Assembly: GCA_947165555.1 (NCBI GenBank)
Contig: CAMVAR010000001.1
Coordinates: 1-36,662 of the forward strand
Length of the DNA stretch: 36,662 bases
Reading direction: 5' to 3'
From: an uncultured Pseudomonadota bacterium
Lineage (GTDB): Bacteria > Pseudomonadota > Alphaproteobacteria > Rs-D84
The notes under the pieces were generated by a model. The model saw only the letters and a list, made by a program, of their open reading frames with translations, did not search any database and had not been told where the DNA came from. The translations under genes were made by a program, and so were the position numbers. Each line of letters starts with the position of its first letter. Position 1 is the first letter of the stretch. Shown piece by piece: positions 20,028 through 24,438 of this stretch.

Positions 20028-20984
20028 ATGAGAATGTTGCAAAAGTGGGGATTTTTTTTACTGGCGATTATTGTGCCGGCACTGACGCATGCCGACGAAG
20101 CGGATTTGGTTGCTGCACTGCAAAACACATATTCCGCATGCGTTGGGATAGATGAAGCTCTTGCAGATTTAAAAAAGATGGCAGGTATAAATACCGCGAT
20201 AACAGGTGTTGGAACTGGACTTGGTGCCGGTGCAACGATTGTTGGTATTGTAAAGGAACAAAAAGACCAATTGGCCGACAAACTTAAACTTGAAAAATTG
20301 CGCACAATCGAAGAACGTCGTATGCAAACTGAAACACCACCGACATCAAACGAAGAACTTGATGCAGCAAAGCGCGAATTTGACAATTTGTGGGGCAAAA
20401 CCACCAACGATAAAAATACAGATTCAGAAATTGAAAAATTAGACAAACAATCAAAAAGTTTGGGTAATTGGCGAACAGGTTTACTTGCCGGGAACACTGT
20501 CACTAATGTTGCCGGTGCAATTATTGCAGGCAAAAACAAAACCGATGGCGACCTGCAAAGCCAAATTGATAACTGCAAGTCCGCAATCGGTGAACTGCGC
20601 CGGGCACGCGCCCGGGCACGCATCGACGGCACCGACACGGGTGAGGCAAACGCTATTATTTCGGCATGTGAAGGTTTTGAAACCGTTGATATATCAAAAA
20701 TAAATACCCGAGCAAAGGGCGCAATGGTTTCCGGCATTGTTGGTGCAACAACGGGACTTACCGGAACAATAACCAGTGGTATTGCAAACAGCGATTCTGT
20801 TCGCAATCAGGGCGAAGGTGGCACACGCACCGATAAAGAAAAAAATCTTAATACCGCATCAAATATTTTGGCGGGCGCATCAACGGTTGCATCGGGTGTT
20901 GCAACGGTATTTAACGCAACACAAATATCGGCAATTAAAAAAGTCGCAAATGTTGCCGCAAAATGTACGGAGGCATTAAAATGA
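20028..20984 (+). CDS. Secreted 318-aa protein with four Gly/Ala/Thr-rich (glycine-zipper-like) hydrophobic segments
   Basis: The signal peptide is MRMLQKWGFFLLAIIVPALTHA|DE. Hydrophobic G/A/T segments lie at about aa 55-76, 148-168, 231-253 and 277-296, separated by charged helical linkers. There is an internal duplication: YSACVGIDEALADLKKMAG...GVGTGLGAGATIVGIV against ISACEGFETVDISKINTRAKG...GIVGATTGLTGTITSGIA. I recognise no family. Confidence 0.8.
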   Translation: MRMLQKWGFFLLAIIVPALTHADEADLVAALQNTYSACVGIDEALADLKKMAGINTAITGVGTGLGAGATIVGIVKEQKDQLADKLKLEKLRTIEERRMQTETPPTSNEELDAAKREFDNLWGKTTNDKNTDSEIEKLDKQSKSLGNWRTGLLAGNTVTNVAGAIIAGKNKTDGDLQSQIDNCKSAIGELRRARARARIDGTDTGEANAIISACEGFETVDISKINTRAKGAMVSGIVGATTGLTGTITSGIANSDSVRNQGEGGTRTDKEKNLNTASNILAGASTVASGVATVFNATQISAIKKVANVAAKCTEALK

Positions 20985-23900
20985 AAAGATTTTTAATCGC
21001 ACTCTTTGCAGTATTTGCCTCTGGTAAAACTTTTGCCGAACCAAATGGTGGTTTTATCCCACAAATTCCACCGATTTATGCGCACCCAGATGTTGTCGAA
21101 TATGCCATTAAAAAATATGTTGTTGCACCATATGACCCAAACAAAGTAACCGCGGCATACGAGCAATATATGAATCAAAATGACGGAACAATCACATTAG
21201 AAAATCTGCAACAAAAGGTTTGTCCCGCCGGTGGTATGGATTATGCACGGTGTAAAGAATTTACAAATGTATTGATGATACCATATTACGACGTATGCGA
21301 TAGTGGCAAGGGAAAATCAGGCGGCAACGAACATTGTGAAAAGAACTTTTTTTATTATTCGGCACCCAAAAATCTGAGTTTTGGAAATGGAACCTATGTC
21401 AGAACCAAAGAAGCAATTGGTCTTGCCCAAGAATACGCATTGGTTAAAGATAAACAAAAGGTTGTTTGTGTATCCACCAAAGGAAATTCCAAAAAGACAG
21501 ATACAATTTGGTGCACCGGTATTGATAAAAAACATTTTTATGAATTCAAATTTAACAATATCAAAGAAACCAAGGATGACCACATAAAACAATCATTACT
21601 TGGTGCGATATGTAAATTACACAATACGCAATACAGTGCCGGCGGTATCGGTGCCGCGACACTTGGAAGCGCCCCGGGTTATTCTTGGCCGGATTCATGT
21701 GAAACCGCGGATAAGTTCATATGTACAAATATAAATAAATCACTTGGACGTTTTTCATACAAAGCAACGATTGGAACAAGTGATGTTCCACCAACTGGTA
21801 AATATTCAACCTGTGTAATTGAAAAGGTTGTGAGTGATATATCGAACTTGCGCAGCGCATATGGTATTGACCCATCAGTTTTCAAAAATATTCAAGCGTT
21901 GGCGGGTGAAGATATAGACAAGAAAATCAAACAATATGTTAAACAGGAATTACAAAAACAAAAAATAACATTTGATGAAAAATCATTTCATTGTGCCGAT
22001 TCAACCAATGTTTTGAACGGTGGTGATGTTTTAACGTGCTATGTAAATAATAAACCGGTTGATTTCTTGTTCAAAGATTTATCTGAATGGAGCGGCGTGA
22101 ACAAACGCGGTGGTACCCAGGCAATGGATTGTATTGTATCGGGCGGAACATATACCGGCAAACGTTGTACAAATTTGAATCAAAAACAGTGCGAAATGTT
22201 GCGGAACGCAAATCTAAAAAGTTGTCCAAGTTGTAATATGGTTCGTTGGGATGCAAAAAATAAAGTTTGCACTTTACCAAGCAGTGCCGCCGCAACCAAT
22301 TTGCAGAAAGATATGAAAGTTGTTGCAATCGTTGGTGGTGCGGTTGCGGGTGCTGCAATCACTATCGCCACTGCTGGCACCGCCGGATTGACTGCCGGTG
22401 GTTATATTATACTTGGTGTTGAAACAACTGGTGCCGGACTTGAATTATGGTCCCAATCAAAAATTGATGGTATTGCAGATGAATTTTTCTTAGAAGCAAA
22501 TAACTGTAATAATGTAAATTGTGCAGCACAATTGATCGAACAATATTTAACCGACCTTGCTGCGATTGACCGCGACCTAACCGCCGACGAAGCGGATGCT
22601 GTTGATAAAGAAATGGCAAGATTGTTTGAATTGATACCAACTGATTCAAATTGGTGGATTAATAATTTAAGGACCGATGATGGTGAATCATTCCTTGAAA
22701 AAGCCGACAATGGTCATTGGACCGCAGCACAAGTATGGCGCGCGATTGGTATAGGCATGCAATTCGTAGGTATCGTATCATCGGTCACTGGTTGGATTAT
22801 AAAGAAAACGCTATTTTTAGAGAAAACTTTAGATAGAACATCCAGAATATTATTAAATAATGCAAGAATCGCAGAGAAAAATATTGTAAAATATGAAAAC
22901 TTATCCGATATAGATAAAGAATTTTATAAACTATGGAAAACATATGCACCAAAGAACCAAACGTTTGAACAATTTAAAGCAATGTCCAATGGCAATTTAG
23001 ATGAGATGAGACAAATGACGAAAGGGTGGCGCGCTCGAAATGAAAGAGATTTTGCTGCGGAAATTGAAATAGCCGATATTAGGGGGAAAATTGGCCAATT
23101 TTATTACAAAAGATGGCTTGAAGGTAAATATAGCCCCACAGATGCAAATACAATAAATGATTTTAAGCGGTTGCGTTATTTGGAAGAGAATCGAGTTGTG
23201 AATTATGCAACTTATGACCAAGAATTTAGTAAAATATCTAAACCGTATGAGCAGGAAATGGAAGATTTGAGCGCTTGGTTTGATCGAGAATTTGATAGAA
23301 TATACGATAATCATGTACAAAATAATTTGCCAGGGAAGTATTCAGAAACAGATGAATATAAGAATTTTATACAACAGTATCGGGAAAAGAGAAAAGATAT
23401 TTCTGGGAGATATCAATATCAAATTGCCGAACAGTTTCCTTTGGAAAATCTTGGAAATGTTGTAAACGAACGAGCAACCGATTTCACGGAAGTAATCAAA
23501 AATAATCCTAACATAGAATCAAACCTAAATGATTTTACTTGGGGGCTTAAAGATGATAATGAACGCCTTGATATCGCACAACAAATTTTGGATGAATATG
23601 CTAGAAAAACTAATACCCCCATTATAAAAGTCGAATTTGGGGATAATATGGTATTTGAAGGAGTATGGAATGGCGAGAAAATACAAATAAACCCAAATTC
23701 AGATTTTTTCAAAAGCCCCAAAGGGATGCTTAATATTCTTGCGCATGAACATGGGCATGCAATAGATGAGTTGGTACCAAATGAAGGGGCTCTTGGTGAA
23801 CAATTTTCGCATTATGCGGAAAAATTATATTCAAATGCTAAAGATGCAGGATATCGTGTTGCATTAACAGAACAAAGTTCATACAAGATAGGTCCAAATG

Positions 23901-24139: not shown

Positions 24140-24438
24140 TTATTAAAAATGAAGATAACTTATTGAGTTATGTGGAAAAAGTTGAAAAAAATGTTGATAA
24201 ACTATATAGTGCCATTGCATCAGATAATCCTATAAAATCAGAAGCAGATAATATACGAATATCAATCATAAAACAACTTGCTTTTATACGTGCGTCAATT
24301 GATGCGGGGCGACTTCTTTCTCAAGCTCAAATGGCACAAACGACAAGTAAAATTGATGAACTTTGTCAAGAATTGCAAAACAAGATTAATCAAAAAGCAA
24401 ATTGTTCGCACTTATACAAAGGCACACGACAAATGTAA
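24136..24438 (+). CDS. 100-aa predicted all-helical protein coupled to the 1052-aa gene
   Basis: The ATG overlaps the upstream stop (ATGA at 24136-24139). It has no signal peptide and I recognise no family. Its position suggests a cognate partner (inhibitor, immunity protein or chaperone), which is inference only. Confidence 0.6.
   Translation: MIIKNEDNLLSYVEKVEKNVDKLYSAIASDNPIKSEADNIRISIIKQLAFIRASIDAGRLLSQAQMAQTTSKIDELCQELQNKINQKANCSHLYKGTRQM

Follow-up and report, generated by a model that had tools for sequence, protein, structure and literature searches.

What is encoded by three tightly coupled genes of no recognisable family that lie beside a tRNA gene in an uncultured gut alphaproteobacterium of the order Rs-D84? 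The genes, here called gene 1, gene 2 and gene 3, occupy positions 20,028–24,438 of a contig of 36,662 nucleotides (nt) (CAMVAR010000001.1, assembly GCA_947165555.1), the whole of which was analysed and is referred to as the window. A first-pass annotation made from the letters alone had left two readings, either an effector or toxin that inserts into membranes, bears a metallopeptidase head and is accompanied by a small partner, or a surface-anchored protease complex. Its observations are largely correct, with two details failing (an internal duplication in gene 1 and the choice of a zinc-site Glu). Comparison with relatives gives slightly better than even odds to the proposal that the three genes represent a single copy of a polymorphic toxin/effector cassette that is mobile, multi-copy and specific to Rs-D84/Candidatus Enterousia. 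The cassette family has not been described before; it is of the polymorphic-toxin kind, and its parts have no described relatives.

The evidence for a polymorphic cassette comes chiefly from gene 2. In 55 relatives recovered by BLAST, the N-terminal ~600 amino acids (aa) are shared by all and the C-terminus varies. Clustering of the parts that follow the hydrophobic region yielded at least 33 C-terminal classes in 119 proteins. Identity profiles of the relatives against gene 2 of the window, computed in 50-aa bins, contain sharp breakpoints at residues ~100, ~500 and 650–700: protein P0006 is 82–98% identical up to residue ~650 and <20% identical beyond it, the identity of P0011 and P0013 breaks at ~500, and P0021 is 86–92% identical over the N-terminal module and drops after ~100 aa. 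Furthermore, at a single chromosomal site (CopG, FBP aldolase, EFP ... dnaN), the gene 2 C-terminus differs between all three of the loci L003, L007 and L095. As judged from these alignments, the conserved unit is gene 1 together with the N-terminal ~610–630 residues, or two thirds, of gene 2. The family thus shows a constant front with unrelated ends, sharp breakpoints, and occurrence in multiple copies in association with mobile elements, as polymorphic systems do; a downstream gene that changes with the toxin domain is seen in two matched cases, and many loci have no candidate for one.

The three open reading frames (ORFs), both of their ATGA overlaps and the GGAGG ahead of gene 2 are all present as first annotated. 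The ATG of gene 2 overlaps the TGA of gene 1 at 20981–20984, the start of gene 3 overlaps the stop of gene 2 at 24136–24139, and the GGAGG (20969–20973) is spaced 7 nt from the gene 2 ATG. A further in-frame ATG upstream of it, at 20963, arises from conserved Lys-Cys codons of gene 1 and is unlikely to be the true start. All 82 distinct family junctions examined between gene 1 and the next gene overlap or have a start no more than 2 nt from the gene 1 stop; 76 are ATGA, and the remaining six are TAATG overlaps or starts ≤2 nt from the stop. Coupling is therefore a property of the family and not an accident of the window. Sec-type N-termini are found on gene 1 (MRMLQKWGFFLLAIIVPALTHA/DE) and gene 2 (MKRFLIALFAVFASGKTFA/EP), and gene 3, small as had been noted, lacks one.

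The swapped ends are poor in Cys. Polymorphic parts contain 0.10 Cys per 100 aa (n = 110), against 3.5 in the constant part and 1.16 in ten housekeeping proteins of the window, and 84 of the 110 contain none at all, whatever their class. Cys depletion of this strength is characteristic of proteins that have to pass through membranes and an oxidising compartment in an unfolded state, and the composition of the swapped ends would therefore fit unfolded membrane crossing. Several ends resemble enzymes of known type. The payload of P0013 is similar to an exported alarmone synthetase of Streptomyces albidoflavus (E = 1.4e-7), which is toxic when kept in the cytoplasm (PDB 8vx3). P0044 and P0050 resemble the OspF/SpvC phosphothreonine lyases (NCBIfam 3.6e-7 and 6.7e-6, Pfam 1e-4, PDB 4e-3), the best NCBIfam value for the OspF-like lyases being 6e-8, and further, weak C-terminal matches are Kdo-kinase-like, J-domain and PRANC. 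On homology to toxic and effector enzyme families only, the C-terminal domains would be toxins or effectors that act in another cell.

Two other observations concern the payload classes. The representative of one C-terminal class matches NCBIfam NF041399 (XopAD/skwp type III effector; E = 1e-21) as well as PRK09169 models, the best of these with 6e-15; this match was not assigned to a member, was not recovered among five proteins rechecked, and may reflect either Ala/Asn-rich repeats or real SKWP-like repeats. The second commonest payload motif, G(K/R)WE.(F/L)(F/L)GIG..GWFN, occurs in P0039, P0043, P0027, P0032 and L076, in a module that often follows ~55-aa repeats (LRxKASxNFDxYLxxF...RMSKSEWDxLN). 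This GKWExFFGIGxxGWFN module has no match in Pfam or PDB.

The payload in the window is a zincin-like domain that follows a helical linker and precedes a Gly/Ala/Thr-rich (G/A/T) segment and a polybasic tail. The HEHGH motif reported in the first-pass annotation is real and conserved: H922, E923, H926, Y958 and E964 do not vary across 21 sequences whose identity is otherwise only 14–54%. The Glu of a nearby GEQFSHYAE had been proposed as a zinc-site residue, a role that falls instead to the conserved E964 in LTEQSS. The model of the domain contains three strands within 883–903, the HExxH helix at 913–931 and a later helix at 962–979, with predicted local distance difference test (pLDDT) values of 84–97. 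SprT-like matches were obtained for 8 of the 21 members (best 1.6e-4) and DUF6782 matches for 4 (7e-5), with scattered matches to YgjP-like, M91 and MPTase-PolyVal families, all of them below gathering scores, and the profile of the class weakly matches MJ1213 and ArdC. Taken from sequence and model, these features support the designation of the payload as a predicted zincin-like metallopeptidase but not its assignment to a named family, and the residues H922, E923, H926 and E964 would make it a gluzincin-type protease. Similar to the SprT/WLM/ArdC-type zincins, DUF6782 and NleD (M91), the domain has an HExxH helix after a small beta-sheet and a conserved Glu downstream. In contrast to those families, its 38-residue spacing from HExxH to Glu and its invariant Tyr place it in a separate subfamily with no characterised member.

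Gene 3 accompanies one subclass of this payload. A gene 3 profile was searched over every ORF of at least 40 aa in 95 loci, and all relatives found lie directly behind a gene 2 copy in which the zincin is followed by a G/A/T segment and polybasic tail; after zincin classes without these, none occurs among the loci examined. A word-indexed search with gene 3 returned the window copy alone, and the relatives came only from the local profile over the 95 loci. Six distinct loci carry the gene (the window; L001/L002/L017; L055; L057; L058; L093), all with an ATGA junction, and the associated gene 2 identity extends down to 39%. Co-conservation of the three genes is seen in at least six distinct loci. 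The trio had been presented as the unit; it does recur, but the unit is gene 1 with the front of gene 2, and the zincin is one of at least 33 modules. Gene 3 is a candidate cognate immunity protein or tail-specific chaperone.

A second matched pair occurs in L095 (7589–8385), where the gene 2 relative P0013 is followed by a 78-aa ORF and then by a 179-aa HD_4 gene (HDxxED, no signal peptide). The HD_4 protein looks like the type of hydrolase that degrades alarmones, and the arrangement would resemble a toxin with its antidote. The two matched pairs, gene 3 with the tail-bearing zincin and HD_4 with the alarmone synthetase, form the strongest argument for toxin ends that need a cytoplasmic neutraliser. 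The alarmone synthetase and hydrolase point to a bacterial-type cytoplasm with a need for self-protection, and modules of the OspF-like, J-domain and kinase-like types are found more typically in effectors directed against eukaryotes. A conserved 416–447-aa Cys-rich secreted protein is also encoded downstream at the EFP/dnaN locus (L003 10748–12019, L007 11219–12562, L095 8591–9841). It is present whatever the gene 2 class, and in L095 the 78-aa ORF and HD_4 gene are inserted before it.

The constant front of gene 2 consists of a signal peptide, a helical module of ~90 aa, an ectodomain and a membrane or translocation region. Its count of ~18 Cys in the ectodomain, as first annotated, is borne out: 18 lie before residue 431, followed by C509 and C514, and the last 538 residues of the protein hold none. 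The strongest hydrophobic stretch is the 41-aa, Gly/Ala-rich segment 447–487 (nt 22319–22441; Kyte-Doolittle 2.12 for 447–465), which is probably a hairpin. Downstream of it are a helical subdomain with the invariant C509 and C514 and a third hydrophobic helix at 589–609 (Kyte-Doolittle 1.66 for 589–607), the latter followed by KK..K..R..R. The described reuse of a G/A/T-rich segment, once in the membrane region and again before the polybasic KKNKKKDKK tail, was found at both places. The AlphaFold model of gene 2 has a mean pLDDT of 75, with most of the ectodomain at 80–95; a Foldseek search of PDB and BFVD with this model gave no match at E<0.001, the gene 2 profile against PDB sequences gave coiled-coil noise only, and the very large family members with N-terminal insertions returned nothing in Pfam.

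The N-terminal module of ~90 aa is present in 70 of 85 distinct gene 1 partners (E<1e-3), including short secreted ones that lack the rest of gene 2, and the partners without it are mostly trypsin-like secreted proteins. It may connect the partner protein to gene 1 and is a candidate docking module. The ectodomain and the hydrophobic/helical region are present in about three quarters of the gene 1 partners. The ectodomain evolves fast, with a mean pairwise identity of 31%. In the loci L009 (10933–12171), L020, L022 and L026, gene 1 homologues are ATGA-coupled to secreted trypsin-like proteins of ~410–430 aa, which have neither the shared N-terminal module nor the gene 2 architecture as a whole.

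Within the cassette, conservation is highest in gene 1. Its mean pairwise identity is 60%, compared with 31% for the ectodomain of the linked gene 2, and the two can uncouple, as in the comparison of the window with L014, where gene 1 is 92% identical and the gene 2 ectodomain 36%. Its Sec signal and four Gly/Ala/Thr-rich segments are real. In an alignment of 47 sequences, the four Cys (residues 38, 183, 214 and 313) and most positions of the four segments are invariant. The segments are moderately hydrophobic (Kyte-Doolittle 1.1–1.6) and too polar for stop-transfer helices. A Cys-bearing helix had been placed before three of the four segments; it precedes two directly (C38 and C214), not three, and the fourth Cys assigned near the C-terminus corresponds to C313. 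The proposed internal duplication did not hold, as the two halves align no better than shuffled sequences (local score 35 against 34.5 +/- 5.5, with 222 of 500 shuffles reaching 35) and hhalign gives a probability of 0.4%. Only the pattern of a Cys helix followed by a G/A/T segment recurs. Homology of gene 1 with the hydrophobic region of gene 2 is unsupported by alignment.

The AlphaFold2 model of gene 1 is helical throughout and of low confidence (pLDDT 54). A Foldseek search with this model gave nothing significant, and the model is too poor for trust; its top natural matches were AhlB, XaxB, MakA and SmhB (E 0.15–1, TM 0.17–0.26), the best of them, AhlB and XaxB, at E 0.15–0.43 and without a sequence match. 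The gene 1 profile against PDB sequences gave coiled-coil noise only, and the protein has no lipobox Cys. Two gene 1 relatives lie 2–3 kb apart in L036 (4532, 7001), L062 (7001, 8880) and L064 (2898, 5196). The second copies are 31–45% identical to gene 1 of the window, and therefore older, more divergent gene 1 lineages exist.

Searches beyond the individual proteins define the range of the family. More than 1,768 relatives of gene 1 were found. For gene 2, an indexed search recovered 55 relatives, and an exhaustive profile search of 1.84 billion representatives recovered 564 clusters (50% identity), 356 of them at E<=1e-30. The named sources are gut metagenome-assembled genomes labelled Alphaproteobacteria or Candidatus Enterousia, save three records (Clostridia, Muribaculaceae, Rickettsiales), and the cassette family is confined to gut Alphaproteobacteria of the order Rs-D84 (Ca. 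Enterousia). Enterousia belongs to the order Rs-D84; its genomes are below ~1 Mb and lack central pathways and standard transporters (PMC12306168), and these bacteria are thought to be obligate symbionts or parasites of other cells (PMC12306168). Nothing meaningful was obtained for the three proteins in Pfam, NCBIfam, PADLOC or PHROGs, and no match was found among PDB sequences or folds, in agreement with the earlier view that they belong to no recognisable family. The HMM-library and model/Foldseek checks suggested at that time were run and gave no characterised family, sub-threshold zincin matches aside. PADLOC models of anti-phage defence do not match genes 1, 2 or 3. A phage origin was considered and rejected, as no gene 1 relatives occur among viral contigs.

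The genomic setting is consistent with mobility. Of the 79 loci kept, nine genomes hold two or three, and three loci hold two gene 1 relatives each. In the window, two 53-nt direct repeats bracket a 5.85-kb segment that comprises the three genes and a MYG1-like gene (Table 1). A relative of this repeat adjoins tRNA-end repeats in L019 (3136–3249), and the 53-nt repeat may be either an att-type site or part of a promoter region that is shared. Close to the tRNA-Met, 20 nt of its 3' end recur in what looks like the att-site scar of an earlier integration or excision. In L019, the gene 1–gene 2 cassette itself lies between 20–21-nt copies of the 3' end of tRNA-Met. Locus L028 shares synteny with the window (virB4, the following ORF, DUF374, lpxK, lpxC, pilO) and carries a different cassette, in the opposite orientation, directly after the same tRNA-Met. 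An integrase gene next to tRNA-Gln is also carried by the islands that hold the L001 and L011 cassettes. The island-like setting beside a tRNA, as first annotated, is thus supported by the repeats, the tRNA-end copy and the comparison with L019 and L028. No orphan cassette fragments were found elsewhere in the window.

Table 1. Features of the three-gene module and its surroundings in the window.
Feature	Position	Strand	Description
53-nt direct repeat, left copy	19959-20011		family D2; overlaps promoter-like site
Promoter-like site	19993-20020		TTAACT-16-TACAAT with TG
Gene 1	20028-20984	+	318 aa; Sec-exported, predicted all-helical; conserved helper of the cassette
Gene 1 Gly/Ala/Thr-rich segments	20187-20255, 20475-20531, 20718-20783, 20853-20921	+	residues ~54-76, 150-168, 231-252, 276-298
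Coupling junction gene 1/gene 2	20969-20984	+	GGAGG 20969-20973 inside the last gene 1 codons (KCTEALK*)
Gene 2	20981-24139	+	1052 aa; large exported protein
Gene 2 signal peptide	20981-21037	+	residues 1-19; predicted cleavage after TFA; read from sequence
Gene 2 Cys-rich alpha/beta ectodomain	21038-22318	+	residues 20-446; 18 Cys, most invariant
Gene 2 N-terminal ~90-aa helical module	21044-21316	+	residues 22-112, with C81 and C91
Gene 2 membrane/translocation region	22319-22807	+	residues 447-609
Cys-free helical linker	22808-23620	+	residues ~610-880; start of polymorphic part
Zincin-like metallopeptidase domain (predicted)	23621-23995	+	residues ~881-1005
HEHGH	23744-23758	+	residues 922-926
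E964 (LTEQSS)	23870-23872	+	start of later helix
G/A/T segment, polybasic tail and stop	24026-24139	+	residues 1016-1042, then EKKNKKKDKK
Gene 3	24136-24438	+	100 aa; no signal peptide; isoelectric point ~8.6
53-nt direct repeat, right copy	25807-25859		83% identical to left copy
20-nt copy of tRNA-Met 3' end	25913-25932		1 mismatch against 26186-26205; 253 bp from tRNA; 0 chance matches expected
tRNA-Met (CAU)	26186-26262	-	integration hotspot; cassettes adjoin here, in L019 and in L028

Other genes of the window lie outside the module. A VirB3-like gene (14837–15142) and a VirB4-like gene (15139–17556) are located 2.5 kb upstream. An ORF at 17450–18166, with a GHEYRH motif, overlaps the VirB4-like gene, and the pair of virB4 and this ORF is also present in the syntenic L028. 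At 29615–34284, a type IV pilus-like cluster encodes a weakly PilO-like protein, a 233-aa ORF, a T2SSE/PilB-type ATPase and a further ORF of 356 aa; nothing is said about pili in the published account of Rs-D84.

The architecture suggests how a polymorphic toxin/effector cassette of this kind might operate. Gene 1 would dock on the N-terminal module of gene 2, and packing of its glycine-zipper helices could help to place gene 2 in, or move it across, a membrane. The ectodomain of gene 2 would bind the target cell, the hairpin region would serve as a translocation device, and the C-terminal module would be the payload that acts inside another cell, in the window a putative zinc protease. Gene 3 might then be a cytoplasmic neutraliser (immunity protein) or a chaperone of the hydrophobic, polybasic tail. 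Several findings weigh against this reading. The zincin relative P0015 (L094) has a modified, extended tail and neither gene 1 nor gene 3 adjoining, and the gene 2 relative P0017 has no adjoining gene 1. The link of gene 3 to the zincin is not separable from its link to the tail, the protein is basic and without similarity to known immunity proteins, and many cassettes have no obvious immunity gene downstream. Gene 1 has no detectable relative of known function and only a low-confidence model, and no delivery machinery was identified. Finally, a payload in the cytoplasm of the producer appears to be the most self-consistent topology, from which export is hard to picture.

This last point bears on a different explanation, which is unlikely but keeps some weight: gene 2 proteins would be type-I-like transmembrane sensors in the producer, with the ectodomain and gene 1 sensing contact or an envelope insult and the C-terminus serving in the cytoplasm as an output or suicide domain (a protease, an alarmone synthetase, a kinase or a J-domain) that is restrained by gene 3 or HD_4. 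The distribution of charge and the invariant C509/C514 pair favour a location of the C-terminal part in the cytoplasm of the producer and so keep a cis-acting sensor–effector model alive. In the most self-consistent topology, the ectodomain and the C509/C514 loop are periplasmic and the C-terminus is cytoplasmic, with KK..K..R..R after the helix at 589–609; neither gene 3 nor the HD_4 protein has a signal peptide, and an alarmone synthetase with a hydrolase would also be plausible as a signalling or toxin–antitoxin pair. However, dozens of unrelated, swapped outputs on mobile cassettes would be unusual for signalling in a ~0.9 Mb genome, the C-terminal parts are ten-fold poorer in Cys than cytoplasmic proteins encoded on this contig, the rapid evolution of the ectodomain is in line with diversification of a receptor or antigen, and there are no PADLOC matches.

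The same charge bias after helix 589–609, together with the missing signal peptide of gene 3, stands against a surface- or envelope-anchored protease complex, in which gene 1 and gene 2 would come together in the envelope, with an extracytoplasmic zincin that acts on host or food proteins and with gene 3 as an assembly factor. The signal peptides of gene 1 and gene 2 would suit such a complex, as would the coupling of some gene 1 homologues to secreted trypsin-like proteins and the lack of standard nutrient transporters in Rs-D84 genomes (PMC12306168). It is nevertheless improbable, as the zincin is one of at least 33 modules, several of which need cytoplasmic substrates (ATP/GTP, phosphoproteins); moreover, this second of the first-pass readings explains neither module swapping nor the matched downstream hydrolase gene in a relative. 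The first of them, an effector or toxin that inserts into membranes, fits the relatives but missed the swapping of the payload. A comparably small chance is given to the proposal that the cassette proteins are substrates or accessories of a nearby VirB-type type IV secretion system (T4SS), with the polybasic tail as signal and gene 3 as adaptor or chaperone. A positive charge at the C-terminus is a known VirB/D4 signal, the tail and gene 3 occur together among the loci examined, and the VirB3 and VirB4 genes upstream (14837–17556) recur in the neighbourhood of L028. The linkage is limited to the window and the syntenic L028, however, since other cassette loci do not adjoin T4SS genes. The basic tail is absent from most C-terminal classes, T4SS substrates do not typically combine a Sec signal peptide with a disulfide-rich ectodomain, no VirB2/TrbC match was obtained for gene 1, and the module contains no T4SS component family in Pfam.

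For the favoured reading of a polymorphic cassette, the systems closest in logic are MafA/MafB/MafI of Neisseria and CdiB/CdiA/CdiI, and the defining domains of both are absent. Maf modules consist of an exported accessory protein of ~320 aa, a toxin with a Sec signal and variable C-terminus, and a small downstream partner, and they occur in multiple copies on genomic islands. The cassette has the same gene order and, like them, is multi-copy and carried on islands. Neither gene 1 nor gene 2 matches a Pfam or NCBIfam family, even at E<=1 for MafA and MafB-N, and the cassette therefore has no MafA or MafB-N (DUF1020) homology; gene 1 lacks a lipobox, gene 2 is much larger and has a Cys-rich ectodomain and a hydrophobic hairpin that MafB lacks, and a downstream partner accompanies only some C-terminal classes. 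With contact-dependent inhibition (CDI) and other polymorphic toxins, the cassette shares a constant front, swappable ends, sharp breakpoints, an upstream helper, Cys-poor payloads and, in two matched cases, downstream genes that change with the toxin. Unlike CDI, it has no TPS domain, FHA repeats or Omp85/POTRA partner in Pfam, gene 1 is predicted to be helical and not a beta-barrel, and no orphan toxin or immunity fragments are present in the window.

The order of signal, binding domain, ~40-aa Gly/Ala-rich hairpin and enzyme recalls Pseudomonas exotoxin A and the hairpins of colicins and the diphtheria T domain, and anthrax lethal factor and botulinum light chains are known examples of zincin payloads. 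The likeness to these receptor–translocation–catalytic toxins is architectural only, with no similarity of sequence or fold. Glycine zippers have been documented as translocation or pore motifs (PMC10240207, PMC10434224, PMC12744356). Gene 1 is comparable to Tde1, the TelE/EsxX LXG toxins, Caulobacter CdzC/D and the ClyA-family proteins AhlB/XaxB in being ~320 aa long and helical with conserved G/A/S/T segments. It differs from the ClyA-family and glycine-zipper toxins in its Sec signal and four invariant Cys, and its Foldseek matches to them are not significant. Furthermore, the conservation of gene 1, above that of all other parts of the cassette, is unlike the behaviour of a toxin in an arms race.

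Ruminants, horses, pigs, chickens, mice and humans widely harbour Rs-D84/Ca. Enterousia in their guts. The cassettes are present in several copies in tiny genomes, are mobile and carry dozens of toxin- or effector-like enzymes, which makes them an obvious candidate for interaction with other cells. The family also offers a catalogue of uncharacterised payload enzymes, including a new zincin subfamily with a small partner. As its constant parts are unlike known secretion or translocation devices, the family could reveal a new way of protein delivery. A bolder and rather doubtful proposal sees gene 1, together with the shared front module of gene 2, as a new Sec-dependent display/translocation device, with which these partner-dependent bacteria of reduced genome would inject interchangeable enzymes into the bacterial or eukaryotic cells that they inhabit or adjoin. 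In such a device, a glycine-zipper helical partner would do the work performed by a beta-barrel in other systems. If true, this would represent a new class of contact-dependent effector delivery and the main tool of the Enterousia lifestyle.

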